A DNA stretch of 64,000 nucleotides from the NCBI GenBank assembly GCA_000830175.1, contig JQIS01000050.1, positions 4,578 to 68,577 on the forward strand. Reading direction: 5' to 3'. Positions 1,912 through 49,047 of this stretch are shown piece by piece. The stretch's first letter is position 1. Each line of letters opens with the position of its first letter. Below the pieces are notes generated by a model. That model had not been told where the DNA came from, searched no databases, and saw nothing but the letters and a program-made list of their open reading frames with translations. The position numbers and the translations under genes are program-made. The DNA is from Sulfurovum sp. FS08-3 (GTDB lineage: Bacteria > Campylobacterota > Campylobacteria > Campylobacterales > Sulfurovaceae).

Positions 1912-2093
1912 TGACAACTCCTCTCCTATCGCATCGTGCGGTGGGAAAGACCTCTTTTAAAATCCCCCTACAATTTTTTACTTTTTATTTACTTAATGTT
2001 GAAATGCTTTTTGAGATGTTCATCTTCTTTTAGGGTTATTGGAAGTTGCTTTAAGGTATAATCACGGCACTATTTTAACACAAAGGGTTTGAT

Positions 2094-3842
2094 TTGAGAA
2101 CACACTATTGTGCCCAAATTAATGAGAGTCATATTGGCGAGGTGGTCACTGTAAGCGGTTGGGTTAGTAGCCGTAGAGACCACGGTGGCGTTATTTTTAT
2201 TGATTTACGTGATAAAGATGAAGTGGTGCAACTCGTTTGCGACCCAACTGACAACGAACAAGCACATAAGAAAGCCGAATCGGTACGGGATCAATTTGTG
2301 TTGGTAGCCACAGGCAAAATACGAGCCAGAGGCGAAGGGTTGGAAAATCCCAATCTCAAAACGGGAAAAATTGAGATGGTTGTCGATGAGTTGATAATCG
2401 AAAACAAATCGCTTCCTATGCCTTTTGATCTCAATGATGAGAAGGTCAATGAAGAGATTAAGCTCAAATACCGCTATCTTGAGTTGCGTACTCAAAAATC
2501 CTACAATATCTTCAAGCTTCGTTCAAAAGTGACCATAGCCGCACGCAATTCACTTGATGCTATGGAGTTTTTGGAGGTCGAAACTCCTATTCTTACCAAA
2601 TCAACACCCGAGGGAGCCAGAGATTATCTAGTCCCAAGCCGTGTGCACGGTGGAGAGTTTTACGCGCTTCCTCAATCGCCGCAACTCTTTAAACAACTCC
2701 TTATGGTAGGTGGATTTGACCGCTATTTTCAAATTGCTAAATGTTTTCGTGATGAGGATTTAAGAGCCGATAGACAACCAGAGTTTACACAAATCGATGT
2801 TGAAATGAGCTTTTGCGAGCAAGAAGATGTCATTAATGTGGCTCAAAAACTCATTTACGATATATTTACCCAGTGCGGTTTTGAAGTGCCAACGCACTTT
2901 GATCGCATGACCTATCAAGAAGCTATGGAGAAGTACGGTAGCGATAAGCCCGATATGCGTTACGATTTGGCAATGGTAGATGTGATTGATATTTTTGAGC
3001 GATGCGACAATGAGATATTTTCCAAAATCGCCGCTACGCCCAAAAAAAATCGCATCAAAGCCCTCAAAGTACCCAAAGGCGACACCCTCTTCTCCAAACG
3101 GCAAATGAAAGGTTTTGAAGAGTATGTACGCAAGTTTGGTGCTAGTGGTTTGGGATATTTCCAAATGAAAGAGGATGGACTCAAAGGCCCGCTAACCAAA
3201 TTCTTTAAAGAAGAAGATTTGCATGCCATTATTGAGCGATGCCAACTTGAAGTGGATGATGTAGTCTTTTTTGGTGCGGGTGAGAAAAAACGTGTTCTTG
3301 ATTATATGGGACGTTTTAGAATCTATTTGGCACAACTTATGGAGATTATTCCGCAAGATCAATTTGCCTTCCTTTGGGTTGTTGATTTTCCGATGTTTGA
3401 AGTTGAAGATGGAGAGGTTAAGGCTCTTCATCACCCCTTTACGATGCCAAAATCGTTGGATTATGAAGATATAGAGGATATTGAATCGATTGCGTACGAT
3501 ATTGTCCTCAACGGCGTTGAGCTTGGAGGCGGATCGATTCGTATCCACAAAGAGGATATTCAAGAGGAGATCTTCAAGCTTTTGGGCATTGGCGAAGAGG
3601 CTGCCAAAGAGAAGTTTGGATTCTTGCTTGATGCACTTAAATTTGGTGCGCCTCCACACGGCGGATTTGCTATAGGTTTGGATAGACTCATTATGCTTAT
3701 GTCGGGGGCTAGTAGTATTCGAGAGGTTATTGCTTTCCCAAAAACGCAAAAAGCACAATGTTTGCTCACACAAGCACCCAGCAGTGTCGATAACAATCAA
3801 CTCAAAGAGCTTAGCATTCGAGTCAAAAAAAGTGAAAAATAA
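2094..3842 (+). CDS. aspS: aspartate--tRNA ligase
   Basis: 582 aa; class II aaRS motifs [31 protein letters not shown]; TTG start after AAAGGG. Confidence 0.95.
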
Positions 3843-4563: not shown

Positions 4564-5133
4564 ATGATTTTAATGATTGACAACTACGACAGCTTTACCT
4601 ACAACATAGTACAATATTGTGCAGAGCTTGGGGCGAACCTCAAAGTGATTCGCAACGACGAGCTTAGCATTGAGGAGATTGGGGCTTTGCATCCCGAAAA
4701 AATCATCATCTCTCCAGGACCCTCTACACCCGATGATGCAGGAGTGACGCTTGAGGTTATTAGGACTTTTGGTGATACGATACCGATTTTTGGGATTTGT
4801 TTGGGGCATCAAAGCATCGCACAAGCCTACGGTGGAGAGGTGGTGAGAGCCAAAAATATGATGCACGGCAAGACTTCACAGATACACATTGATGCACCCA
4901 CTCCTATTTTTGAGACCTTGCCCAGTGAGTTTCGTGCTACTCGTTACCATTCGCTTATTGTCAAGCGTGAGGGTTTGCCCTCTCATATCATTGTCACATC
5001 GCACAGCAAAGATGACAACGAAATCATGTCGCTACATATCAAAGACAAGCCCATTTACGGTGTACAATTTCACCCAGAATCGATCATGAGTCAATACGGG
5101 CATGAGATGTTGGGGAACTTTTTAAAACTCTAA
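4564..5133 (+). CDS. anthranilate/aminodeoxychorismate synthase component II (class I glutamine amidotransferase)
   Basis: MIDNYDSFTYN N-terminus, catalytic GICLGHQ and FHPES motifs. Confidence 0.85.
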   Translation: MILMIDNYDSFTYNIVQYCAELGANLKVIRNDELSIEEIGALHPEKIIISPGPSTPDDAGVTLEVIRTFGDTIPIFGICLGHQSIAQAYGGEVVRAKNMMHGKTSQIHIDAPTPIFETLPSEFRATRYHSLIVKREGLPSHIIVTSHSKDDNEIMSLHIKDKPIYGVQFHPESIMSQYGHEMLGNFLKL

Positions 5134-6225
5134 ATGTCCAAAAGATTATTTTTAGCCGTTGGAATTGTCTATTTTGTCGCTACATTGTATATGGCGATGA
5201 CCATTCCCATCTCTCCTCATGAAGCAGAGAGTCTCTATCTCAAAAAGAGTATCGATACTTTTTTGATGAATCTTTGCTATCCCTATTTGGAGGGATTTAT
5301 CGCTTTTAGGCTACCTTACTATCTCTTTGGTGTACTCAATCTCTTTTTGTTTTGGGAGTTGTCACGATACTACTACAAAACATCCCAAGAGCGATACATT
5401 GCAACGACACTCTTTATTCTTTTGCCTGGCATTGTGACTTCGATGATTTTGGTCAATATTTCAGTCGTGGTTATCGCATGGGTATTGATATTTTTGAATG
5501 CTTATCATAAAAATTGGTCAATTGTGCAGAGTATTGCTTTGATAGTGTTACTATTTGTGCATGATAGTGCTATTGTTTTTTTTATTTCATTGGCAATTTA
5601 TGGCTATTTTAGAGACAAAAAGTATCTATTGGTGGTTGCTTTGTTGCTTGTAATGATGGCACTTTGGATGGGAGAATATTTGGAGATTGGAGGTTTGCCA
5701 CGGGGGCATTTTGCTACCATTTTTGGACTCTACATCGCCATTTTTTCACCTTTTGTTTTTGTCTATTTTTGCTACACGCTCTATCGACTTTATCATGAAA
5801 AAAAACACGACATTGTATGGTATATCGCCTCGATGGGGCTTCTTTTTTCTTTTTTGCTTTCGATTCGACAGCAGGTTATTGTCACAGAGTTTTCGCCTTA
5901 CATATTAATAGGTTCTATCTTTTTGTACCGTGTCTATAGCGAGAGTCTTAAAGTACGCCTCAAAATCTATCAAACAACCTACAAAAAAGTCTTTCTTTTT
6001 ACGCTTACAACACTGCTTTTAGGTACAATGAGCATCTTTTTGCATCGTCCTCTCTTTTGGCTTTTTGAGGATAAAAGCCGACATTTTGCCTATGCTATTT
6101 ATGAGCCTTATTGGTTGGCTCAAGCGTTAAAAGCTCAAAATATTCACTGTTATGATACAAAATTTATCAAAAAAGCTGCTCAGTTACAATATTATGAAAT
6201 TCCCCCATGTGCTTCTCGCAATTAG
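5134..6225 (+). CDS. polytopic integral membrane protein, function unknown
   Basis: Many hydrophobic segments; ATG immediately follows the upstream stop (TAAATG). Confidence 0.6.
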   Translation: MSKRLFLAVGIVYFVATLYMAMTIPISPHEAESLYLKKSIDTFLMNLCYPYLEGFIAFRLPYYLFGVLNLFLFWELSRYYYKTSQERYIATTLFILLPGIVTSMILVNISVVVIAWVLIFLNAYHKNWSIVQSIALIVLLFVHDSAIVFFISLAIYGYFRDKKYLLVVALLLVMMALWMGEYLEIGGLPRGHFATIFGLYIAIFSPFVFVYFCYTLYRLYHEKKHDIVWYIASMGLLFSFLLSIRQQVIVTEFSPYILIGSIFLYRVYSESLKVRLKIYQTTYKKVFLFTLTTLLLGTMSIFLHRPLFWLFEDKSRHFAYAIYEPYWLAQALKAQNIHCYDTKFIKKAAQLQYYEIPPCASRN

Positions 6226-6350
6226 TCTCTTTTTTTGTTTCTAAAATACACAACGAGGGCAATAACCATTATATTATTTATTACTTATAGTAAAGATACA
6301 ACAATCTAATGATAAAGTTATAGCAACAAAAATAAACAAAGGAGAACTCA

Positions 6351-7688
6351 ATGGCTCAAAAGGCGATTCGAGAGTATGACGCAAAGTCTATATTAGCAAA
6401 GCATTGGGATAAATACTTCCCACGCTTTACTTATGCTTATGAGACGGTATTGGTAAAAAATGGACCAGAACTAAGAGAAGCGGCGATAGATCATCCATGG
6501 CTTAGCACAAAAACTTTGGTGGCAAAACCCGATATGCTCTTTGGAAAAAGAGGAAAAAATGGATTGGTACTCTTCAAAGACAAAGCAGTAGGCGATGTGA
6601 CACTTGTCAAAGCTGCCAATTGGATTGATAGCAAAACCAAAGAGAAACAAGAGGTCTATTTTAGCTTTGAGGGTGACACTCCAGTGGGTAATCCATCGGT
6701 TGATTATCTTACGCATTTTATCGTCGAGCCATTTGCACCTCACACACAAGAGGAGGAGTATTATATCTCGGCTACATGCGTAGGTGATGAAGATGTACTC
6801 TATATGTCTGCCGAAGGTGGTATGGAAGTCGAAGAGGGTTGGGATGAGAAAGTTGTCGAAGTAGCCTTTCCTATTACTGCTACCGAAGCAGAGATTGAAG
6901 AGAAAATCAAAGCCAATATCCCCGCCGATGTAGCCCAAAAAGACAAAGCAGCTTTTGCACAGTTTGCGATTGGATTTTTTAAGGCTTATCGAGAGCTAAA
7001 TTTTGCTTATCTTGAAATCAATCCTTTTGTTATGCAAGGTCGAAAAATTGAGCTACTTGATATGGTCGCCAAGCTTGATGATACCGCTGGATTTATGATG
7101 GTTGAGGAGTGGGGTAGTGTGGAGTATCCCACCGCTTTTGGTATGGAAGAGAAATCTCCCGAAGTCCTAGCTATCGAAGATGCCGATGCCAAAACAGGGG
7201 CTTCTTTGAAATTGACACTGCTCAAACCCGATGCTCGAATTTGGACAATGGTAGCGGGTGGTGGTGCATCGGTGGTTTATGCCGATACTATTGCAGATTT
7301 GGCAGGTATTGAGGATTTGGCAAACTATGGCGAGTACAGTGGCGGACCTACTACAGGTGAGACCAAATTCTATGCCGAAACCATTTTGGATCTTATGACT
7401 CGCAAAAAAGATTTGCAAGGAAGAGACAAAATCTTGATTATTGGTGGAGCTATTGCAAACTTTACCGATGTAGCTGCTACTTTTACAGGTATCATTCTAG
7501 CTTTTGAAGAGTATGCCGACAAGATGAAAGAGATAGGTGTTAAGATTTATGTACGAAGAGGTGGACCAAACTACGAAAAGGGTCTAAGAGATATTAAAGC
7601 CGCCGCAGATAGATTGGGTCTATGGATTGATGTTTACGGACCCGAAACGCACGTAACGGATATTGTAAGAATGGCAGTAGAGGCATAA
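6351..7688 (+). CDS. aclB: ATP-citrate lyase, beta (ATP-grasp) subunit
   Basis: MAQKAIREYDAKSILAKHW N-terminus typical of AclB; adjacent to aclA; AAGGAG RBS. Confidence 0.9.
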   Translation: MAQKAIREYDAKSILAKHWDKYFPRFTYAYETVLVKNGPELREAAIDHPWLSTKTLVAKPDMLFGKRGKNGLVLFKDKAVGDVTLVKAANWIDSKTKEKQEVYFSFEGDTPVGNPSVDYLTHFIVEPFAPHTQEEEYYISATCVGDEDVLYMSAEGGMEVEEGWDEKVVEVAFPITATEAEIEEKIKANIPADVAQKDKAAFAQFAIGFFKAYRELNFAYLEINPFVMQGRKIELLDMVAKLDDTAGFMMVEEWGSVEYPTAFGMEEKSPEVLAIEDADAKTGASLKLTLLKPDARIWTMVAGGGASVVYADTIADLAGIEDLANYGEYSGGPTTGETKFYAETILDLMTRKKDLQGRDKILIIGGAIANFTDVAATFTGIILAFEEYADKMKEIGVKIYVRRGGPNYEKGLRDIKAAADRLGLWIDVYGPETHVTDIVRMAVEA

Positions 7689-18280: not shown

Positions 18281-18660
18281 ATTGCGCACTTGCTCAACAA
18301 ATCATCTTTGAGCAAGTCATTGCAAGGTGTGAAGCAATCCACAATGTTTGAGATTGCTTTTCTCGTTCCACCTCTCTCGAGACTATGAAATAACTGCCAA
18401 AAAGTGCTTCACAAACTCTCCCGAGGTGGAATACATACGACAACTTGCATACAAAAATGACATAATCGTGCTATAGTCACCCCATGGGACGAAGCAGATA
18501 CAAAATATATGAACCGACACATCCGCATTGTGTTACTTGTACAGTGTTGCATTGATTACTGATATTTAGAAGAAAAAGGTTTGGTGGAAGTGGGGAAGTT
18601 TTAGTGGGTTGTTTTAGCTTTTGTATGCATTCCACCTCGGGAGAGGTGGAACGAGGAAGG
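18281..18660. repeat. mosaic of dispersed repeat modules at the left edge of the accessory island
   Basis: 18281-18362 matches 32650-32729. 18425-18497 is a reverse-complement partial copy of 25113-25187. TTCCACCTCGGGAGAGGTGGAA palindrome at 18630-18651. Confidence 0.8.
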
Positions 18661-18897: not shown

Positions 18898-19296
18898 TCA
18901 AACTCTATCATTTAACTCAAGTACTTCTTTTTCCCAAGCTTTATAATCTTGAGTTTCGCTCCAAAGCTCTTTAAGTTCGCTATTGTCACTTAAAATAATT
19001 TTGAGTGCTTTTTTCGCTTTTTCTTTCAAGATTTGTGGTACTTCTTGAGGATGTTGTTTGACCCAATTATTCACATCCTCTGCGTACTCTTCATTTTCAC
19101 CAAAGCTACCTTGTAATCTTGCTAAAACTTCTATAGCAACTAACGCTTCTTCGGCTTGATATGATTCTATATATTCCTCTTGCAAAAGATTATCTATAGT
19201 TTGTTCTACCAAAGAGAGATCATCGCTCGCTTCAAGTTCAAAAACCCAGTCCAGTGCCGTATCGTTATCAAAGTTTCCTGCTCCCCATGTTCCCAT
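18898..19296 (-). CDS. DUF4259-like protein
   Basis: N-terminus MGTWGAGNFDNDTALDW matches my memory of the DUF4259 signature. Confidence 0.6.
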   Translation of the reverse strand: MGTWGAGNFDNDTALDWVFELEASDDLSLVEQTIDNLLQEEYIESYQAEEALVAIEVLARLQGSFGENEEYAEDVNNWVKQHPQEVPQILKEKAKKALKIILSDNSELKELWSETQDYKAWEKEVLELNDRV

Positions 19297-19306
19297 TTCT
19301 CTGCTC

Positions 19307-19891
19307 CTAATCTATTCTTAAATCAAATTCAATATTTGGATTTTCTTTTTGAAGTTGTTTGATATATTTTTTTGATTCTTGTAATTCCTCTTTAGTATTA
19401 AATCCTCTACTCATCAATATCATACATCTCGTTAAACGCTCAAACTTTTGGAAGTCAATATCATGTAAATCATACATCGTCACTTCAAGCTTTTCCAAGT
19501 TTTTTAAAGTTGTAATATTTTTATACTCTTGTTTTTTAAAGTATTTCAAGCATTTTAAAATTCTAATATTGTCTAAATTGTCAAAAATTTCAAGTAATGA
19601 TATCTGCAATTCTCTAGAATATCCTTTGATCCACAAGGTGTCTATATCATTATATTTTTTTAACAACGAATTAACAACCTTATCATTTTCAATAGCAAAG
19701 TTTTCTGTATATGTATCTTGAAAAAAAACATCTATATATTTTTCACCTTTATATCCTATACATTGTGCATACACAAGAGGATCTTTCCAAATTTCAAATA
19801 TAAAATTTTCATTTTCTTCAACCATGTCTATAAAATCATTCTCATAATCTGACAACATTTTTCTTGCTAGTTTTGTCTCTTCACTTAACAT
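19307..19891 (-). CDS. hypothetical protein with a leucine-rich-repeat-like C-terminal half
   Basis: AT-rich ORF 10 nt upstream of the DUF4259 gene; LxxLxL periodicity (NLDNIRILKCLKYF, LKNLEKLEV). Confidence 0.5.
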   Translation of the reverse strand: MLSEETKLARKMLSDYENDFIDMVEENENFIFEIWKDPLVYAQCIGYKGEKYIDVFFQDTYTENFAIENDKVVNSLLKKYNDIDTLWIKGYSRELQISLLEIFDNLDNIRILKCLKYFKKQEYKNITTLKNLEKLEVTMYDLHDIDFQKFERLTRCMILMSRGFNTKEELQESKKYIKQLQKENPNIEFDLRID

Positions 19892-19892
19892 A

Positions 19893-20144
19893 TCAACCCT
19901 TACATTTTTTTCTAATATTATCTTTTAGTTCTTCAAATAACTTCGGTCTTCCACCCATAGGTGTTCGTTTATTAGCATTTGCTTCGCTTTTTGCACCCCC
20001 TAGTGCTTCTAAGATAATCTGCTCAACCACTTCTCTCTCAGACTTATTAAAACCTTTGAGACCAATTCTAAGCAATAAATCGCTAGCTTCATCTGCAATT
20101 TTTCCTGCGTATTTATGTTGTCTCAGTCTTTCTCTCGTTCCCAT
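19893..20144 (-). CDS. small hypothetical protein
   Basis: ORF 1 nt upstream of 19891, but its start codon and first codons lie inside a dispersed repeat. Confidence 0.3.
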   Translation of the reverse strand: MGTRERLRQHKYAGKIADEASDLLLRIGLKGFNKSEREVVEQIILEALGGAKSEANANKRTPMGGRPKLFEELKDNIRKKCKG

Positions 20145-20268
20145 CGTCTCGATGGGAATGCATACTCAAACCCCAATCTACCAAAATCTCTTAATCTCTA
20201 TCAACCCATCCATTCTCTGCTTCGTCCCATGGGGTGATTATGGCGCGATTATGTCATTTTTGTATGCA
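20131..20268 (+). repeat. about 140-bp dispersed element headed by a TTCCCATCG-TCTC-GATGGGAA hairpin (copy 1)
   Basis: Near-identical to 25029-25166; its distal part recurs inverted at 18425-18497. Confidence 0.85.
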
Positions 20269-20280
20269 ACGAGGAAGCCT

Positions 20281-21774
20281 CTAATCGATACTTAAGCCTC
20301 TTGTTGATGGTATGGTTTGGTTTGATTGGCTCTTTTGGGATGCTATTGAGGCATCGACGATATAGGTAAGGTCATTGTATTGGGGTTCAATGCGTAGTTT
20401 GGTATTGAGTTCAATGCCGTTGATTTTGAGCAGATGGGTAAGCTTGTCGTGGCGGCTACACCATCTATGGGCTGCTTGAAGATCTTTTTCTTTTTGATAG
20501 GATGAGATATTCTCTCTCTCCTCTTGGGTGGCTACTACACGCACGATTCGAGTGGTTATATCCATCGTTTGAGGGTTGAATTTGAGCATGATTTTATAAT
20601 CCTCCTCATGGGTATCGAGATAGACCATCTCCCCATTTTCAAGCTTTTGAAGACTCTCGTTTTCATTGACGACTGAGTATCCCATGGCATCAAGAGACTC
20701 TTTGAGTTTATTTAGAGCAATAGCGCGTTCTTGTTTGGCTAGAATAATAGCATTGACCTCATCGGCGATACTTCTAAACTCCTCTTGGGTAATTCTCTCT
20801 TGATTTTGCAACGTAGAGATTTTGCTCCCCACTTCGCTGCCTAGCTCCAATACCGCCAATTTTGCCAAATCCTCTCGATACATTTCGCTCCAAATAGCCA
20901 CCTCTTTGGCTTTGCCGTAATCAAGTTTGATAGACTCTAGCACCATTTTGAGTCTCTCTTCGCTCAATGAGGCAATATCACCAAATCGGCTATACGCAAG
21001 GTCGTATTTTTTGATTTTTTCTTTAAATTCATCAATAGATGCTCGTAGCCTATCAATGGGCGAAACAATCACAATGCTTTGCTCCTCCATCCCCTCTACA
21101 AGTCCCTCTATGCCCTTTTGCATCGCTAGGGCTTTTTGCTCTTTTGTGTAGTCGTCCCATGCAACTTGATACTCACTTACGAGTGAAAATTTCTCTTGCC
21201 ATGAAGCAAACTCTCCTTGAAGCTTTTGTCTTATCGCATCTATCTTGTGTGCTTGAAGCTCCAAAGTTGCATCTTTGGGAGTTTGATTAAACGCATGTGT
21301 GATACGCTCGATTTTATTCTCCATCTCCTCAAACGTTTGGCTCTCTAGTGCTTTTAGGCGATAGATTGTCTCTTTGGCTTGTAGAGAAAAATCCTCAACG
21401 ATTTTTGCATACCTTAGATTGTGTGCGGGGTCTTTGATGAGTTCCATAGTGTAGGCTTCTAGCCCCAATTGTGCCTCTTTTTTGAGCTTTGATACATAAT
21501 CGATTGTGAAATTAAACTGCCCAGTTAGCCTCTCTTGAAGCTTTTCCACCTCGCTGAGCATAAAATCAAACTCTTTTTTGAGCATCTTTTGATTGTGTTC
21601 AAAGACTTTGGTGTCTTGTTGCTTTTGATAGACCCAAATACCCACCGCAGCAACCCCAATCACCCCAATTCCCGACATTACCCCGATATTGATTGCGGCC
21701 GTAGTTGTCATAGTATTGCCCAATACCGTTACGGTTGAAACCTCTACTGCACTCACTGCTATACCTCCATACAT
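20281..21774 (-). CDS. membrane-anchored coiled-coil protein, function unknown
   Basis: 497 aa; Gly/Val-rich N-terminal TM region, long heptad-rich helical region, globular C-terminus. Confidence 0.65.
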   Translation of the reverse strand: MYGGIAVSAVEVSTVTVLGNTMTTTAAINIGVMSGIGVIGVAAVGIWVYQKQQDTKVFEHNQKMLKKEFDFMLSEVEKLQERLTGQFNFTIDYVSKLKKEAQLGLEAYTMELIKDPAHNLRYAKIVEDFSLQAKETIYRLKALESQTFEEMENKIERITHAFNQTPKDATLELQAHKIDAIRQKLQGEFASWQEKFSLVSEYQVAWDDYTKEQKALAMQKGIEGLVEGMEEQSIVIVSPIDRLRASIDEFKEKIKKYDLAYSRFGDIASLSEERLKMVLESIKLDYGKAKEVAIWSEMYREDLAKLAVLELGSEVGSKISTLQNQERITQEEFRSIADEVNAIILAKQERAIALNKLKESLDAMGYSVVNENESLQKLENGEMVYLDTHEEDYKIMLKFNPQTMDITTRIVRVVATQEERENISSYQKEKDLQAAHRWCSRHDKLTHLLKINGIELNTKLRIEPQYNDLTYIVDASIASQKSQSNQTIPSTRGLSID

Positions 21775-21787
21775 TTTTTCAAAGTTT

Positions 21788-21865
21788 TTATCGCTTCTCT
21801 ACCACAATTATACTAAAATTGTCTCTATTGTGAGAGTTATTGACCTTGTCTATGGTGCATTTGAC
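21788..21865 (-). pseudogene. relic of a PP2C phosphatase 3' end
   Basis: Encodes VKCTIDKVNNSHNRDNFSIIVVEKR-stop. 21798-21844 is 47/47 identical to 22562-22608 inside the intact PP2C gene. Confidence 0.8.
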
Positions 21866-21883
21866 TCAAAATTTTAAATACAC

Positions 21884-21913
21884 TTGACATCAAGTCATAT
21901 TTTTGACTACAAT
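21884..21913 (+). promoter_or_regulatory. candidate promoter convergent on the cassette gene
   Basis: TTGACA (21884-21889), 18-nt spacer, TACAAT (21908-21913). Confidence 0.3.
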
Positions 21914-22039
21914 GTTTCTATTAAAACTAAGTGAAGTGAAAATAGGGGAGTTCACGTGCCTCATACCCTTAAATCAATTTGTTTTGGACGAGTTGAATAT
22001 TTAGAGCTTACGGCTGGGGCGGACTGGTATGGCAAAAAT

Positions 22040-22059
22040 GTGGGGCGTTTCCCTCCCAC
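22040..22059 (-). terminator. hairpin terminator after the 133-aa cassette gene
   Basis: On the minus strand GTGGG-N10-CCCAC is followed by ATTTTTG, a few nt after the stop at 22063. Confidence 0.5.
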
Positions 22060-22062
22060 CGC

Positions 22063-22464
22063 TTAGTTTTTTAAATACTCTTCAAAATTACTTTTTTCTT
22101 TTTTATCCAAAAATACCATACTATCTTTGCATTTCACAAGCTGTCTAGTGTTTGGTTTGAATATTGTAGTAAGCTCATTTCTAAAATTATTGATTGAAAT
22201 GCCATAAATCAAATACTCTGCTTCATGCATTGTAATAAAGTTTTTAACCCCATCTTCTTTGTAGTGACAAGAGGCAATTGTATTATCCAAAAGCACTTGA
22301 AAATTGTGTTCTTCTATAAACTTTGCTTGATTTGGATGTTCAATTGATATTTTATTCGATTTCTTTCTTGTTAAGTATAGTTTTTTACTCTTGAACGTAT
22401 TTCTATGAAAATGTAAAACAATTGGATGCAAGTAGCCTAATAATATTCTATTCTTAGAACCCAA
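22063..22464 (-). CDS. hypothetical protein (cargo of the 0.7-kb insert)
   Basis: 133 aa, TTG start; TATAAT element on the minus strand about 45 nt upstream; AT-rich; no motif recognised. Confidence 0.5.
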   Translation of the reverse strand: MGSKNRILLGYLHPIVLHFHRNTFKSKKLYLTRKKSNKISIEHPNQAKFIEEHNFQVLLDNTIASCHYKEDGVKNFITMHEAEYLIYGISINNFRNELTTIFKPNTRQLVKCKDSMVFLDKKEKSNFEEYLKN

Positions 22465-22536
22465 AATATACCTTTTGAAAATTTGACAGCATTATAGCCA
22501 ATAATTTAAAAGTTACATCGCAGGTTTTAAAAGCAT

Positions 22537-23304
22537 TCACAAAAAAGGGTGCAATTTCATTTCTACCACAATTATACTAAAATTGTCTCTATTGTGAGAG
22601 TTATTGACTCTATCTATCAAGCACTCTATTGCATTTGGCTCTCCAAAGCAACTCTCCATTGTTTCCAAACTCATCGCCTCCCATACCCCATCACTGCAAA
22701 TCAAAAAGGTTTCGATGGGTTTCAATGCGATAGTTTTGATTTCAATTTGGGGCATAGTGTTGCTCAAATCGCCCACAATGGCTGAGCTTAAGAGATTTCG
22801 GTGGGGATGGTGATTGATTTTGGTACATTCAAGTAGACCCCTATCGACTAAGTTTTGCACATGGGAGTGGTCACGGCTAAGCTGTTCCAAAAAGACTCCG
22901 CTTAAGCGATAGACTCGGCTATCTCCGCTATTAAATACCGTCGCTCTATCGCCTTGCAACAAAACCCCAGCGATTGTAGAGCCAAAGTTGCGTTTGGTGC
23001 TATCTGTGAATGCTTCGCTATCAAGCCTCTTTTTGGCATTGTGAAGCGTATCAATAATGCTCTCGTGAACGCTTAGTGTTTCGTACTCTTGAAGCAATTG
23101 ACTCAAAACCAACCAACTAGCCTCTTCGCCGTTGTTCTCGCCGCCCATTCCATCGGCTAGGGCAAAGAGGGCTTTGTTGCTCTCAAAGGTTTTGTGCTGT
23201 ATGGGTTGGATTTGCGTTTGAATCAACTCTCTATCGATAAGCAGTGCATCTTCGTTGGAGTCTCTATCGCCTCGATGGCTGAAGTAGGTAGCGACGATAG
23301 GCAT
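22537..23304 (-). CDS. PPM/PP2C-family Ser/Thr protein phosphatase
   Basis: Motifs RGDRDSNEDA, ADGMGG, NSGDSRVY, CSDGVWE, RDNFSII. Confidence 0.85.
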   Translation of the reverse strand: MPIVATYFSHRGDRDSNEDALLIDRELIQTQIQPIQHKTFESNKALFALADGMGGENNGEEASWLVLSQLLQEYETLSVHESIIDTLHNAKKRLDSEAFTDSTKRNFGSTIAGVLLQGDRATVFNSGDSRVYRLSGVFLEQLSRDHSHVQNLVDRGLLECTKINHHPHRNLLSSAIVGDLSNTMPQIEIKTIALKPIETFLICSDGVWEAMSLETMESCFGEPNAIECLIDRVNNSHNRDNFSIIVVEMKLHPFL

Positions 23305-23706
23305 CTAATCCTCAATGACTACTTCAAATTCAAAAGATTGAGACAAAGAGAGTTTGAGTCCGTTTTTAAGGCGTATCTTTTTAAACTTGTTGCCTTGTAC
23401 ATAAGAGCCGTTGGTTGAGTCCAAATCCTCTACCGCCCACTCTCCTTGATGCAAAAAGAAACGAGCGTGTTGGCGTGAAATAGTCTTGAAGGCTTTAAGC
23501 TCCTCTTTGCCTACGCCCTCTCGCCCCAAAATATCGCCATCTTTGAGCGTGATAGAGAGACGGTAATCGCTATTGACAAGCTTTAATACCCTCTCTTTGG
23601 GTTTGTACTCCTCGACACTGCTAATATCGGCTAAGCAATTATCGCATAAATAGGCGGATAGCTCATTTTTGGTTTGACAAGTGGGGCAGATTTTATATCG
23701 TTCCAT
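23305..23706 (-). CDS. zinc-ribbon plus FHA domain protein
   Basis: CPTC..x..CDNC ribbon; FHA core GREG..ISRQHARF..DLDSTNGSYV; ATG 23706 preceded by GGAG. Confidence 0.8.
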   Translation of the reverse strand: MERYKICPTCQTKNELSAYLCDNCLADISSVEEYKPKERVLKLVNSDYRLSITLKDGDILGREGVGKEELKAFKTISRQHARFFLHQGEWAVEDLDSTNGSYVQGNKFKKIRLKNGLKLSLSQSFEFEVVIED

Positions 23707-24283
23707 TGAGTAGCTCCTTGCTATCGGTGATTTTGGGTATGCCCAAAACATAAAGTTGTTGATTTGTATCGACTATCTGAAGTTCTCTTTTGGTAGAGAC
23801 TCTAAACTCTTCGTAGAGCGGTTGCAATGCTTCATTGAGAACATAAAGCGTTTGATTGGCAGAGCCTCGATAGACCTCCTTGCTCTCTTGATTTTGTTCA
23901 AATCTTCCATCAATGAGGGCATCAATGTACTTCAAAATCTCTCCAAAATGCTCTTGCAGATAGGCAAACTCATAACCGCTGTAAACAAGTATATCATTAA
24001 ATCCCTTATCTCGCAACGCTTGAAGCAGAGCCAATAGAGCCTCGGGTTGCTCAAAAGGCTCACCCCCTGAAACGGTGACTCTTTGAGTATCGTATTGACT
24101 CACTTCCTCCACTATCTTGGCAACACTGCTTTTGTTTTTCTCTTTTTGTTGCCATGTATGCACCGAAATACACCCCGCACACCCCAAAGAGCATCCATCA
24201 AACCAAACGCCCACACGCTTGTTTGGACCCAACACATAAAGGGGGTAGTGGATTAAGTTTATATAGATGGTTTGATGTTGCAT
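23693..24283 (-). CDS. NrdG-like radical SAM activating enzyme
   Basis: GCSLGCAGC (CX3CX2C), VSGGEP, DGRF..x..YRGSANQ, collinear with anaerobic RNR activases; AAGGAGA RBS. Confidence 0.75.
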   Translation of the reverse strand: MQHQTIYINLIHYPLYVLGPNKRVGVWFDGCSLGCAGCISVHTWQQKEKNKSSVAKIVEEVSQYDTQRVTVSGGEPFEQPEALLALLQALRDKGFNDILVYSGYEFAYLQEHFGEILKYIDALIDGRFEQNQESKEVYRGSANQTLYVLNEALQPLYEEFRVSTKRELQIVDTNQQLYVLGIPKITDSKELLNGTI

Positions 24284-24343
24284 ACTTATCTCCTTGTGAG
24301 CTACGCTATTTATACTTGAATCGATACGTTACGGGCATATTTA

Positions 24344-24562
24344 TCATATTCGCAAATATTTTGAGATTGAACTCTCCCTTTGTCTCTCTCTATCCCCAAC
24401 GCTCGTTTGATTGAAGTGGCTATATAAAACGCCAAATTGGGCGATACAGCATTGCCTACCATCTTCATTCGCCCAAATAGTTTGAAATCCTGCTTGGTGG
24501 AAGCCTAGGTCTAAGCCACCTGCACCGCCAAAGAGGGAGAGGATATTTAATGGCTTAATCAT
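24344..24562 (-). pseudogene. remnant of a DNA cytosine-5 methyltransferase (N-terminal ~35 codons only)
   Basis: Motif [15 protein letters not shown] and WANE (motif II region), then the similarity is lost; far too short for a C5-MTase. Confidence 0.7.
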
Positions 24563-24792
24563 AAAAACTCACTTTTAATAAAAGTAACATTTGCCTGTTT
24601 TAATTGCTTCCATTCACTCTTTAAACTTCCAGCAGTCAAAACTTCATATACAAATATCCAATATTCATCAATATCATCTTTAAGAGTATTTGCTAGTTTT
24701 TTATACTTTTTGGTAACTTTAGAATGTTTTATAAACTTTTCATCATGTAAATATGCCAATAATAACAAAACAGCATCATGAGAATTTTCTAC
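24559..24792 (-). pseudogene. 3' fragment of an unknown gene truncated at the TIR-element boundary
   Basis: Frame is open from the element edge (stop at 24793-24795) with no plausible start context; its stop overlaps the MTase-remnant ATG (ATGA). Confidence 0.45.
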
Positions 24793-25028: not shown

Positions 25029-25187
25029 TCTCTCGTTCCCATCGTCTCGATGGGAATGCATACTCAAACCCCAATCTACCAAAATCTCTTAATCTCTATC
25101 AACCCATCCATTCTCTGCTTCGTCTCATGGGGTGATTATAGCACGATTGTGTCAATTTTGTATGCAGGTTGTCGTATGCATTCCACC
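25029..25187 (+). repeat. hairpin-headed dispersed element (copy 2), right edge of the island
   Basis: Near-identical to 20131-20268; extended tail TTGTCGTATGCATTCCACC is shared (inverted) with 18425-18445. Confidence 0.85.
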
Positions 25188-46853: not shown

Positions 46854-46966
46854 TCGGTTAGCTCCTCCTGTTACCAATCGTATCCATAAGTGATGTTTTT
46901 CTCTAATTTACTGGTTCCATGGGTTACATTATAGCATATTTAGGAGGAGCTAACCGACTAGCCTGT
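46845..46966. mobile_element. 122-bp MITE-like TIR element (copy C)
   Basis: Same TIRs and interior as 24795-24915, with one extra A. Confidence 0.85.
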
Positions 46967-48301
46967 AAAGAAAATTTTGATGAAGTTGAAAAATTATTTG
47001 ATAAGTATCAAACCATTCAAGGCAGACTCAATTTTATATCTCAAAAGGTAGGCATTAAGCCATATATTCGGGAAATTAAGATAACTAATTTTAAATTGCT
47101 TCAAAATTTCACTATTGAATTTAATGAGAAAATCAATATTATAATCGGTGAGAACTCTAGCGGAAAGACTTCACTACTACAAGCTATTACACTAGCCTTG
47201 CTTGATAAAAATGTAGCCATTCAAACAGGCAAAAACCCTTACAGTCAATACATCACAAAAGATACCGATGTTTCAACAATTACACTCACAATGGATGAGT
47301 TTGAAAAAAAGATAGTGCTACATGAAGCATCTAGGAGTGTAGAAAATAATTTCTTATCACCGTTTGTATTGGCTTACAGTTCGAGTATCTTTACCAAGTA
47401 TGGTGAGGTTGAATCGTTGGTAGAGAAACTACTTGCCCAAAAAGTATATGAAGATTTTACAAAATCAATTTTTACCGATTATATTGATACACTCTATAAT
47501 CCAAAAGCTATTCTAAATGTCCTAAAAGATAAGAAAAGTAAACGAGCCAAAGAAGTAGAAAAAATTTTTGTTGGTACAATTAATAGCTTTTTATCGACTT
47601 TGGATGATTTTAGTTTAGAAATAGGAGATAAGAGTGGTAATTATTGCTTTAGAGACAAAAAGAAAAAAGAGTTTACGCTCAAAAATTTAAGCGAAGGGTA
47701 TCGCAATAGTATCCTACTCATTGGTGACATACTCATCAAAGTACTAGGTGTCGGAAAGAAACCCGATACAATCGAGGGTGTTATCCTCATAGATGAATTT
47801 GACAGACACCTCCACCCCAAATGGCAAAGCAACTTAGTAACCAAGCTCACAACTATTTTTCCATATATTCAATTTATCTTGACGACGCATAATCCGATGT
47901 CGGTATTGGGGAGAGAAGCCAACGAGATTACTATCATCAAAGAAGAAGATAAAGAACTCAAAGCTATCAAAAAGAGCGGTACAAAAAATATTGATGCAGG
48001 TACGGTGCTTGTTAAATACTTTGGTGTAAATTTGGTGAGTAATGTAATGCATGACAATCTCAAACGCTTTACGCAATTGAAATTAAAAAATCAAGAATTA
48101 TCCGAAGAGGAAACAAAGGAGTTTGCAAAATTAGAAGAAGATTTAAGCGAGACAGTGGCTACTAACTTTATATACAACAATGGATATTTTAAATTTTTGA
48201 AGTTTGCAAAAACACATCAAGATATTGATTTTGATGAACTCGATGAATTAAGCGAAGAGGAGTTGGATAGATTATTAAGTGATTTTGAGGAATCACTATG
48301 A
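46919..48301 (+). CDS. ptuA: AAA15/21-type ATPase, Septu PtuA-like
   Basis: Walker A GENSSGKTSLLQAI, signature-like LSEGYRN, Walker B VILIDEFDRHLHP. The only in-frame start (ATG 46919) lies inside the TIR element. Confidence 0.7.
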   Translation: MGYIIAYLGGANRLACKENFDEVEKLFDKYQTIQGRLNFISQKVGIKPYIREIKITNFKLLQNFTIEFNEKINIIIGENSSGKTSLLQAITLALLDKNVAIQTGKNPYSQYITKDTDVSTITLTMDEFEKKIVLHEASRSVENNFLSPFVLAYSSSIFTKYGEVESLVEKLLAQKVYEDFTKSIFTDYIDTLYNPKAILNVLKDKKSKRAKEVEKIFVGTINSFLSTLDDFSLEIGDKSGNYCFRDKKKKEFTLKNLSEGYRNSILLIGDILIKVLGVGKKPDTIEGVILIDEFDRHLHPKWQSNLVTKLTTIFPYIQFILTTHNPMSVLGREANEITIIKEEDKELKAIKKSGTKNIDAGTVLVKYFGVNLVSNVMHDNLKRFTQLKLKNQELSEEETKEFAKLEEDLSETVATNFIYNNGYFKFLKFAKTHQDIDFDELDELSEEELDRLLSDFEESL

Positions 48302-49047
48302 TTAATATGCGACCTATCTATTTGGATGCTTCTTTCCAAAAAGCATTGCAAAAATTTCACAAGAAGCTTCCTCAGGAGTGTTACGAGACAACCGATTGTG
48401 AGTGGTCATTGTTTAAAAAAGCTTTTTTGAAGTTTTCAAAATACAAATGTCCTATTTGTGAAGACAGGGTAAGAAGATATGACGATATCGACCATTTTAG
48501 ACCAAAAGAAGAGGCGTTGTACCCTTTTTTGAAGTGTTGCTATCAAAATTATATAGTTATGTGTAGCGAATGCAATAGGTTTTATAAAAAAAGTAACTTC
48601 CCATTATTGAACCCTACTCAAAAAGCTACAAGTGTCGTAGAACTCAAAAACGAAAAACCTCTACTCGTCAATCCAATGCATGATGACATATTTGAACTGT
48701 TTCAATTAGAATTTATAGTATCAAATAAAAATAATAAAAAGATGCTAGTAGTTGCTCCAAAAGATGGCATTGATGACGAAAGCAGACAAAAAGCCCAAGC
48801 CACAATAGAGCTTTATGGTATTGGGAATTGTGATGATAATGATAAAATTGATGATTGTAGAATTGATTTACTAGAGAATCATTATGACCAATTTATCGAA
48901 TTAGCAAAAAGAGCAAAAAAATATTTTGAAGACAAAACAGAGCGAAATAGAGTTTTACTAGGCAAAAAAATAAAGGAAAAACCAAGTTTGGAAAAATACG
49001 GTTTTGTAGAGTTCATCAAAAAAGGTCAATTTAAAATTGCAATTTGA
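48298..49047 (+). CDS. ptuB: HNH nuclease, Septu PtuB-like
   Basis: CPICE..x..IDHFRPK..x..N..x..CSECNRFYK HNH pattern; ATGA overlap with ptuA. Confidence 0.7.
   Translation: MINMRPIYLDASFQKALQKFHKKLPQECYETTDCEWSLFKKAFLKFSKYKCPICEDRVRRYDDIDHFRPKEEALYPFLKCCYQNYIVMCSECNRFYKKSNFPLLNPTQKATSVVELKNEKPLLVNPMHDDIFELFQLEFIVSNKNNKKMLVVAPKDGIDDESRQKAQATIELYGIGNCDDNDKIDDCRIDLLENHYDQFIELAKRAKKYFEDKTERNRVLLGKKIKEKPSLEKYGFVEFIKKGQFKIAI

Follow-up and report, generated by a model that had tools for sequence, protein, structure and literature searches.

The stretch of DNA analysed here (the window) comprises 64,000 nucleotides of contig JQIS01000050.1 of Sulfurovum sp. FS08-3. On its minus strand, between positions 24283 and 20281, lie five open reading frames (ORFs) of 196, 133, 255, 133 and 497 amino acids. 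These encode, respectively, a radical S-adenosylmethionine (rSAM) protein, a protein with a zinc ribbon and an FHA domain (Zn-ribbon-FHA), a PP2C phosphatase, an orphan protein, and a protein designated 49x. The original prediction, made from the sequence alone, placed the four operon genes correctly, including their strand and tight coupling, and all of the motifs that it quoted for the rSAM, Zn-ribbon-FHA and PP2C proteins are present, with the families now backed by Pfam scores.

Genes of the window operon

The rSAM gene (23693..24283, minus strand) encodes a minimal NrdG/PflA-like protein of 196 amino acids with the motifs GCSLGCAGC (CX3CX2C), VSGGEP and YRGSANQ. It matches Pfam families Fer4_12 (PF13353; E = 4e-30, 105.2 bits versus a gathering cutoff of 22) and Radical_SAM, and the cluster motif, the GGEP motif and the Pfam score assign it to the Fer4_12, or activase-type, subgroup of the radical-SAM superfamily. 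Residues C31, C35, C38, G73, G74, P76, S141, N143 and Q144 are invariant in 30 family members. The top NCBIfam match is NrdG (TIGR02491), with the PflA and QueE models ranking next, and NrdG/PflA activases, which share the ~200-aa fold, the N-terminal CX3CX2C, GGEP and RGSxNQ, also gave the top matches among PDB sequences. However, the protein falls below every NrdG equivalog cutoff (99.9 versus 126.1 bits for TIGR02491, 72.5 versus 199 for NF008335, and 46.1 versus 151.7 for TIGR02826) and carries an extra, family-specific C-terminal segment (LQI..D...GIP). Furthermore, it is set in a kinase/FHA/AAA+ type of operon with no glycyl-radical partner. In 12 related loci it is linked to genes for the FHA and/or an AAA+ protein, and nrdD adjoins it neither there nor in the window. 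The ten largest ORFs of the window are of housekeeping type (AspRS, ATP-citrate lyase, GyrB, a hybrid histidine kinase, a molybdopterin oxidoreductase, sulfite reductase, MoaA and others), and neither NrdD nor a Hanks kinase is among them. Thus, despite the NrdG-type motifs and best matches, it is extremely improbable that this gene is the ordinary nrdG of the genome displaced from nrdD, an outcome for which the original prediction had allowed. A viperin-like rSAM was also rejected, as the score with NF038283 is 24.7 versus 180 bits and the match to PADLOC pVip (E = 4e-8) is to the generic rSAM core.

The Zn-ribbon-FHA gene (23305..23706, minus strand) starts at MERYK (23706), a position set by its homologues, which gives a product of 133 amino acids and a 14-nt overlap with the end of the rSAM gene. 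The FHA domain is well supported (PF00498; E = 1e-12, 48.5 bits versus a gathering cutoff of 20.7), and the four zinc-ribbon cysteines and the residues that bind phosphothreonine (pThr), G61-R62, S77-R78-x-H80 and N99, are invariant in an alignment of nine orthologues. The protein is therefore a predicted pThr reader. Its stop codon (23305) abuts, with a 0-nt gap, the ATG (23304) of the PP2C gene (22537..23304, minus strand), which encodes a PP2C/PPM Ser/Thr phosphatase of 255 amino acids. The motifs DGMGG, GDSR, SDG and DN are present, and the protein matches PF13672 (PP2C_2; E = 7e-11, 42.5 versus 24 bits) and PF00481 (E = 1e-7, 32.4 versus 20.3 bits). Among NCBIfam models it is near the Stp1 type but falls below the cutoff for an Stp1 equivalog (131 versus 230 bits).

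The 49x gene (20281..21774, minus strand) most likely begins at the GTG codon at 21756, as GGAGG lies 6 nt upstream of this codon, all homologues begin MS.. and an identical database protein (P0001) has 491 amino acids. The predicted length of 497 would thus be revised to 491, and the predicted layout was upheld. Hydropathy revealed a single Gly-rich transmembrane (TM) segment at residues 24–50 (GxGxxGxxxxG) followed by a Lys/Arg-rich stretch, so that the bulk of the protein is expected to be cytoplasmic. An AF2 model based on a 110-sequence alignment (pLDDT 86.5, pTM 0.79) has helices at 54–363, forming a bundle, and a conserved alpha/beta C-terminal domain at 371–486.

Only nine close homologues of 49x were found among 5.8 billion clustered proteins, all of them from Campylobacterota or metagenomes, and a search with a wider alignment returned the same nine. 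A profile search of 1.84 billion representatives defined a family of 232 clusters at 50% identity with E≤1e-3 (149 at E≤1e-10), mostly of 440–560 amino acids with the C-terminal ~220 residues in common. No match to 49x was found in Pfam, NCBIfam, PADLOC or PHROG, and no common Pfam family was matched among 91 members. With Foldseek, no match of the model in PDB or BFVD surpassed E = 0.1, and the 49x profile gave coiled-coil-type noise only against PDB sequences. Hence, despite the confident model, assignment of 49x to a characterised family, which would have spoken against the original prediction, was not obtained. A plasmid search found no homologues; distant members on plasmids were reached through look-ups anchored on rSAM (see below).

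The most conserved 49x residues in the 110 aligned sequences are D431 (109 sequences), Y366 (108), C439 (107), Y393 (105), W438 (104), R461 and E463 (103 each), and R409 and L361 (102 each), and the [LM]GY and [WF]C motifs are kept even in relatives that have no TM segment. The C-terminal alpha-beta-beta-beta-alpha-beta order, together with weak MspJI matches (E~0.3) of a first, low-confidence model, had suggested a PD-(D/E)xK nuclease. This was rejected, as the acidic catalytic motif is unconserved and the confident model gave no such match. RiPP-type maturation of the Thr-rich N-terminus of 49x was also considered and has no supporting feature; an outgroup rSAM gene in locus L011, which covers only 67% of the query, adjoins one for a lanthipeptide dehydratase.

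The ~3.3 kb of coding sequence in the window is free of frameshifts and premature stops. Comparison with the closest relative, locus L022, by the Nei-Gojobori method (dS 0.14–0.44) gave dN/dS values of 0.17 (rSAM), 0.18 (FHA), 0.33 (PP2C) and 0.27 (49x), which are averages over the whole divergence of the two loci and in which a recent relaxation, since loss of the AAA+ gene, would be undetectable. The values indicate purifying selection on all four genes across most of this divergence.

Related loci and the larger module

Gene neighbourhoods were read from Pfam tables and from hidden Markov models (HMMs) built from the loci themselves. Genes of the rSAM, FHA and 49x types co-occur in at least 12 independent loci, and 49x homologues stand beside rSAM, FHA, AAA+ and Ser/Thr kinase (STK) genes in 10 of the 11 loci with enough flanking sequence; the genes thus form a conserved block, as the neighbourhood check had been expected to decide. 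The rSAM-anchored look-ups retrieved the same partners at 35–53% identity in L008, L009, L010, a Rhizobium plasmid (L027) and an Aristaeella plasmid (L028).

Among the gene orders are STK-AAA-rSAM-FHA-(PP2C)-49x and circular permutations of it. The order is STK-AAA-rSAM-FHA-49x in L004, AAA-rSAM-FHA-49x in L014, AAA-rSAM-FHA-49x-(588 aa) in the P0135 contig, 49x-STK-AAA-rSAM-FHA in L012, FHA-49x-STK in L019, PP2C-49x-STK in L020, STK-AAA-rSAM-FHA in L009, and STK-AAA-rSAM in L008, where the contig ends. The plasmid of Aristaeella lactis (Clostridia) has genes for a DUF4011 helicase, an STK, a 430-aa protein, a double-Zn-ribbon FHA protein, rSAM, AAA+, PP2C, a DUF6273 protein and a further STK, in this order. 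Rhizobium leguminosarum plasmid pRLgr12_2 and the metagenomic locus L010 have AAA+, rSAM, a 2,086-aa protein and a protein of ~450 amino acids. The complete operons of the two plasmids carry the locus tags JYE50_RS15400-15440 (A. lactis WTE2008) and LZK78_RS27340-27355 (pRLgr12_2).

In the AAA+ protein of ~600 amino acids, the N-terminal AAA-like half is degenerate, whereas the other half is of the active ClpB-D2 type with a D2-small domain. The stop codon of its gene overlaps the rSAM start by 4–34 nt, and the overlap between the rSAM and FHA genes is 14 nt. In the kinases, the catalytic Lys and the H(R/L)D...N, DFG and APE/SPE motifs are retained, and most of these proteins have predicted C-terminal TM segments. 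In L010 (7059–13310) and L027 (8653–14913) the kinase is part of the ~2,085/2,086-aa protein, in which it is fused to a DUF4011/AAA_11/AAA_12 helicase and an MTES_1575 nuclease (PADLOC PDC-S37, 2e-145; Hhe, 7e-66). The gene for this fusion directly follows the AAA+ and rSAM genes and precedes that for a 49x relative. The 430-, 437- and 452-aa proteins of the plasmid-type loci are TM-less, distant 49x members (HMM E = 1.5e-5 and 8e-15), and the 49x-like proteins of L010 and L027 are 40% identical. As relatives in other lineages have no TM segment, 49x is a core component and not simply a membrane effector.

The full module, then, comprises a C-terminally membrane-anchored Hanks-type STK, AAA+, rSAM, Zn-ribbon-FHA, often PP2C, and 49x, the last predicted to be TM-anchored in Campylobacterota and soluble elsewhere. 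A scan for the gene pattern over 185,579 species genomes returned 1 locus, though the frequency in genomes is probably underestimated by it.

Distant rSAM relatives (~29–37% identity) occur with genes for IetA-like AAA ATPases, DUF1257 and DUF2997 proteins on Paenibacillus and Paenarthrobacter plasmids, which suggests that AAA+ and rSAM were paired before the kinase/FHA layer was added. The order in L029 (5685–8552) and L031 (4564–8257) is IetA-like AAA ATPase, DUF1257, DUF2997, (hypothetical), NrdG-like rSAM. Another distant rSAM relative is part of an island in Geminocystis that also includes an anti-phage dCTP deaminase and a dGTPase.

The closest relative found for the window operon, L022/L023, shares 91.6% nucleotide identity over rSAM-FHA-PP2C and 93.5% over 49x. 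In L022 the order is AAA-[HpaII-type R-M]-rSAM-FHA-PP2C-49x (R-M, restriction-modification), with the AAA+ gene intact 2.4 kb upstream of rSAM. The intervening insert (4813–7075) consists of fragmented C5 methyltransferase (MTase) ORFs around an intact RE_HpaII gene. The window and L022 have only the operon and a ~140-nt repeat (see below) in common and their flanks are unrelated; hence, the block occupies different chromosomal sites in close relatives.

No STK or AAA+ gene was detected anywhere in the 64-kb window, even among ORF fragments of 25 amino acids. Thus, the original observation that no kinase accompanies the FHA/PP2C pair is true of the window but not of the system, as relatives carry both the kinase and the AAA+ gene in the same operon and L022 retains the latter. 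The absence of the kinase is a lineage-specific loss or displacement and not a design feature, and the description of the genes as a self-contained module is not supported. In the window copy, the kinase and AAA+ genes have been lost and a foreign cassette has entered between PP2C and 49x (see below). The four remaining genes may act as a sub-module with phosphorylation provided in trans, or may be in early decay.

The first of these options can be put more strongly, in line with the original prediction, namely that rSAM-FHA-PP2C-49x is a functional stand-alone module of the Sulfurovum type that reads marks made by an unlinked host or phage kinase and is reset by PP2C. The block is the unit common to the window and L022, its four ORFs in the window are intact, and their dN/dS values are 0.17–0.33. 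The four-gene core is also found with no adjacent STK or AAA+ gene in L001/L013, where 4.6 kb upstream was checked, and rSAM-FHA-PP2C in L024, and these loci are only ~71–73% identical to the window in nucleotide sequence. However, L022 and L016 keep the upstream AAA+ gene, parted from the block only by inserted cassettes, the AAA+ gene overlaps rSAM in every non-Sulfurovum lineage, and the dN/dS averages are blind to recent relaxation. A stand-alone module is therefore considered unlikely.

The cassette, the island and its neighbours

The PP2C and 49x genes of the window are separated by a 708-bp cassette (21854..22561, minus strand) that is not present in L022/L023 and carries an orphan ORF and a G+C-rich hairpin region. 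The ORF (22063..22464, minus strand; 133 amino acids, TTG start) has no detected homologue, with no match in Pfam, PADLOC, NCBIfam, PHROGs, plasmids or phages, and the hairpin-like stretch after it folds no better than shuffled sequences. Two direct copies of a 56-nt repeat, 95% identical, flank the insert. Copy 1 (22562..22617) lies within the 3' end of the PP2C gene, and copy 2 (21798..21853) is a relic of a PP2C 3' end (..NFSIIVVEKR*) at the ancestral PP2C/49x junction, matched by the PP2C HMM of these loci with E = 2e-9. The PP2C of the window now ends ..VVEMKLHPFL*, the last 7 codons (MKLHPFL*) being derived from the cassette, whereas the intact PP2C of L022 ends ..SIIVVEKR*, identical to the relic. 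In L022 the cassette is absent, PP2C and 49x are adjacent with a spacing of 31 nt, and the single 56-nt copy aligns with both copies in the window. The original prediction that 49x was the fourth cistron before a cassette was inserted is therefore correct. Likewise, the relic that it had reported was confirmed, but not the 13-nt distance from this relic to 49x, which becomes 31 nt with the probable start at 21756. Both repeat copies include a promoter-like site, CTCACA-16-TATAAT, on the coding (minus) strand, a match to consensus only. Duplication of the repeat would equip the cassette ORF and the displaced 49x gene each with a promoter-like site of its own.

Insertions of this kind recur. The AAA|rSAM and PP2C|49x junctions repeatedly carry unrelated cassettes (L001, 4405–8001; L006, 6157–8001; L016, 1310–5077; L022, 4683–7078; window, 21854–22561) made up of toxin-antitoxin (TA) pairs, an AAA_15/21 ATPase, a PDDEXK_9 ATPase, the HpaII R-M genes, DUF1848/EMARD_N or an orphan ORF. 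Thus, the order in L016 is AAA-[ParE TA, DUF1848, EMARD_N]-rSAM-FHA-PP2C-[PDDEXK_9 ATPase]-49x and in L001 [GmrSD, RhuM]-rSAM-FHA-PP2C-[TA, AAA_15/21, 308 aa]-49x. Two of the inserts are flanked by duplications of the junction, of 56 nt in the window and 26 nt in L006. The operon acts as an insertion hotspot, with homology-facilitated illegitimate recombination as one possible route. In L024 the order is rSAM-FHA-PP2C-vWA, with a 582-aa vWA protein with a signal peptide (1970–3718) in the position of 49x; this protein may be unrelated to the module.

Upstream of rSAM in the window lies a relic of a C5 DNA methyltransferase gene (24310..24562, minus strand), in which motif I is joined almost directly to the C-terminal motif, at the position of the HpaII-type R-M insert of L022. 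It adjoins a relic of a Drt4-type defence reverse transcriptase gene (24559..24768, minus strand), a 69-aa ORF that corresponds to the C-terminal ~70 amino acids (PADLOC Drt4, E = 9e-16, profile positions 436–504 of 506) and represents the stub of a lost DRT system, cut off beside the ~140-nt repeat. With this second relic, the surroundings of the operon agree with the defence-type island originally proposed.

A structured, dispersed repeat of ~140 nt is present in two direct copies that enclose the entire island, copy A (20131..20272, plus strand), which abuts the stop codon of 49x, and copy B (25029..25170, plus strand), 96% identical to it. The repeat opens with a perfect 8-bp hairpin (CCCATCG-TCT-CGATGGG), and on both strands its predicted folding surpasses that of every one of 200 shuffled sequences (z about -3). 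A partial inverted copy is found at 18420–18498 of the window, and others occur in L022 (12669–12826), L023 (5679–5833) and L015 (3086–3240), 2.35 kb downstream of the operon in each of the three. Rfam gave no match for the repeat in the region 18–27 kb of the window; it could be a MITE/REP-like element, a small RNA or a recombination site.

These features bear on the question of whether the window copy is a decaying, non-functional remnant of a larger system in an eroding defence island. The neighbouring genes are relics, an internally deleted MTase and a C-terminal Drt4 stub, the STK and AAA+ genes are missing, the cassette insertion rewrote the C-terminus of PP2C, and the bracketing repeats suggest repeat-mediated rearrangement. 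On the other hand, the coding sequence of ~3.3 kb has remained open, dN/dS is <0.35 for all four genes, and the 56-nt duplication supplies the displaced 49x gene with a separate promoter-like site. A non-functional remnant thus appears doubtful.

Defence genes also surround the operon in other loci: GmrSD, RhuM, a TA pair and an AAA_15/21 gene in L001, a Zeta toxin and an integrase in L004, ParE, EMARD_N and PDDEXK_9 in L006, and HEPN, Lit-like Peptidase_U49 and SNase in L010. Two further regions of the window were noted. Downstream of the island, at 18898–20144 (minus strand, 30% G+C), lie three small genes for a DUF4259 protein (E = 7e-31), a 194-aa protein with a faint leucine-rich repeat match and an 83-aa orphan, which could be immunity-like or accessory. 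A second low-G+C island (32–34%) at 46919–49047 (plus strand) includes genes for a 460-aa AAA_15/AAA_21 (AbiEii/OLD-type) ATPase and for a 249-aa protein, with no Pfam match, that overlaps the stop of the former; the pair may be a separate two-gene defence system.

Proposed function and relation to known systems

The findings above are best accounted for if the operon of the window is a truncated form of a kinase/AAA+/rSAM/FHA/49x module that is mobile, spans several phyla and works as a Thr-phosphorylation-gated conflict system, an interpretation that we consider probable. The system from which this copy derives seems to represent a conflict or signalling module of a kind not yet described, and for its mechanism gating by Thr phosphorylation, combined with protein-directed radical chemistry, is our best guess. 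From the conserved residues, the kinase, the phosphatase, the rSAM protein and the pThr reader are all predicted to be competent in catalysis or binding, and the kinase and the Campylobacterota 49x are predicted to be membrane-anchored.

Upon a trigger, most likely infection or another invader, the kinase and PP2C would write and erase a Thr-phosphate on a component of the system. The Zn-ribbon-FHA protein, which is translationally coupled to rSAM, would read this mark and bring rSAM to a protein target. Enzymes as small as this can accept small substrates, as QueE illustrates. Being of the minimal, open-barrel activase type, the rSAM protein would nevertheless most probably act on a protein loop and not on a small molecule. 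The AAA+ unfoldase and 49x could serve as partner, substrate or scaffold. The output might be membrane damage via the Gly-zipper TM segment of 49x or, in other lineages, attack on nucleic acids via the Hhe-like helicase-nuclease fused to the kinase.

Several observations weigh against this interpretation. No target of rSAM was found, and the glycyl-radical motif RVxG[FWY] occurs in no partner in the partner alignments. The best candidate glycine in 49x, G365 of the LGY motif, is Asp in 12 of the 110 members, which weakens the case for 49x as a glycyl-radical protein, and Foldseek finds no similarity of 49x to PFL or GrcA. The anti-phage role is argued from guilt by association, the 49x family is absent from the viral contigs searched, and one distant 49x relative (L026) lies in an unrelated context. 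In addition, three Sulfurovum-type loci (the window, L001 and L024) have no adjacent kinase or AAA+ gene and L022 is without a kinase; the four-gene variant that includes PP2C could therefore be a stable arrangement by itself.

The type VI secretion system (T6SS) pathway PpkA-PppA-Fha1 with ClpV employs a Hanks kinase, a PP2C phosphatase, an FHA reader and a ClpB-family AAA+ ATPase at the membrane. The same kinds of parts make up the module, but its AAA+ protein has one active ring module and it adds rSAM and 49x. The parallel raises the question of whether the module is instead a housekeeping-type signalling system for membrane or stress responses, in which a Thr-phosphorylation switch, similar to PpkA/PppA/Fha/ClpV or to the Arn-type FHA regulators, controls an envelope or redox process. 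The predicted membrane location of the kinase and 49x would suit such a role, and an oxygen-sensitive rSAM protein could be a redox sensor in microaerophiles. However, the distribution is sporadic, as reflected in the single locus from the species-genome scan, the chromosomal sites differ and copies are found on plasmids, and the neighbours are consistently defence genes, with the kinase fused to a defence-type helicase-nuclease. No T6SS core genes (TssA-M, Hcp, VgrG) were annotated or detected in the loci examined. Membership of a T6SS regulatory pathway was rejected on this ground, the relationship being one of analogy only, and a housekeeping role is judged improbable.

Operons for vWA, STK, FHA and PP2C proteins, among them the TerY-P-type triads and Deinococcus DRA0331-0334, and the ArnA/ArnB FHA-vWA pair follow an operonic kinase/phosphatase/FHA push-pull logic (bioRxiv 10.64898/2026.01.23.701218; PMC7472852; PMC7159879). 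By analogy, the module would work most like these push-pull modules, with a ClpB-like ATPase added as in the T6SS pathway; its activase-type rSAM and its 49x family are without precedent in them. These systems include neither an rSAM nor a ClpB-like ATPase gene. The window, for its part, lacks a vWA gene; an adjacent one is found only in L024, in the place of 49x, and its product is predicted to be secreted. The module was thus not assigned to the vWA ternary or TerY-P systems.

Among defence systems with kinases or rSAM proteins (Stk2, PD-T4-6, MADS mad6, KKP; viperins, Ophion), none combines the parts of the module. The kinases of related loci match the mad6 (MADS) and PD-T4-6 models, a similarity at the level of domains only. 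Ophion, a non-viperin rSAM defence system, combines rSAM with PHP and PRTase partners (bioRxiv 10.1101/2025.09.30.679545), which are different from those of the module. The kinase fusions in L010 and L027 resemble Hhe/PDC-S37 in their DUF4011 helicase-nuclease, a part absent from the window, and the AAA+ protein, absent from the window as well, matches Dodola DolB and PDC-M37B in the ATPase core only. PADLOC v2.0 matched no system; 49x, FHA, and the distant rSAM and 49x-like proteins gave no match with it, and PP2C, STK and AAA+ gave domain-level matches only. The combination was also not found in the literature searched by full text, where coverage is incomplete and an earlier description is possible. 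Thus, as originally stated, no named system corresponds to the module.

A bolder form of the proposed mechanism, to which we give little credence, is that the module represents a new immune or conflict class, whose radical chemistry is directed at proteins and gated by Thr phosphorylation. The Zn-ribbon-FHA protein would deliver the NrdG-like activase to a phosphorylated partner, where a protein radical would be created or transferred or, alternatively, the domain of 49x with the near-invariant Cys439 would be modified. Either event would then switch on the membrane effector or the helicase-nuclease effector. If this is true, the module would provide the first example of activase-type radical-SAM chemistry in a role other than metabolism.

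Interest in the system is moderated by the incomplete state of the window copy. In 49x, it brings to light a sizeable protein family without a Pfam model or structural relative. Natural variants, namely the form with all six genes, those without the kinase or the AAA+ protein, TM-anchored versus soluble 49x, and the helicase-nuclease fusions, are available for dissection of the essential parts. The Sulfurovum loci show defence cassettes inserting at internal operon junctions and provide a useful case for the growth of defence islands. Should the module prove to be a working conflict system, bacterial immunity or signalling would gain a chemistry not yet explored, in which an activase-type rSAM is coupled to a ClpB-like unfoldase and to Ser/Thr phospho-signalling of the eukaryote-like kind.

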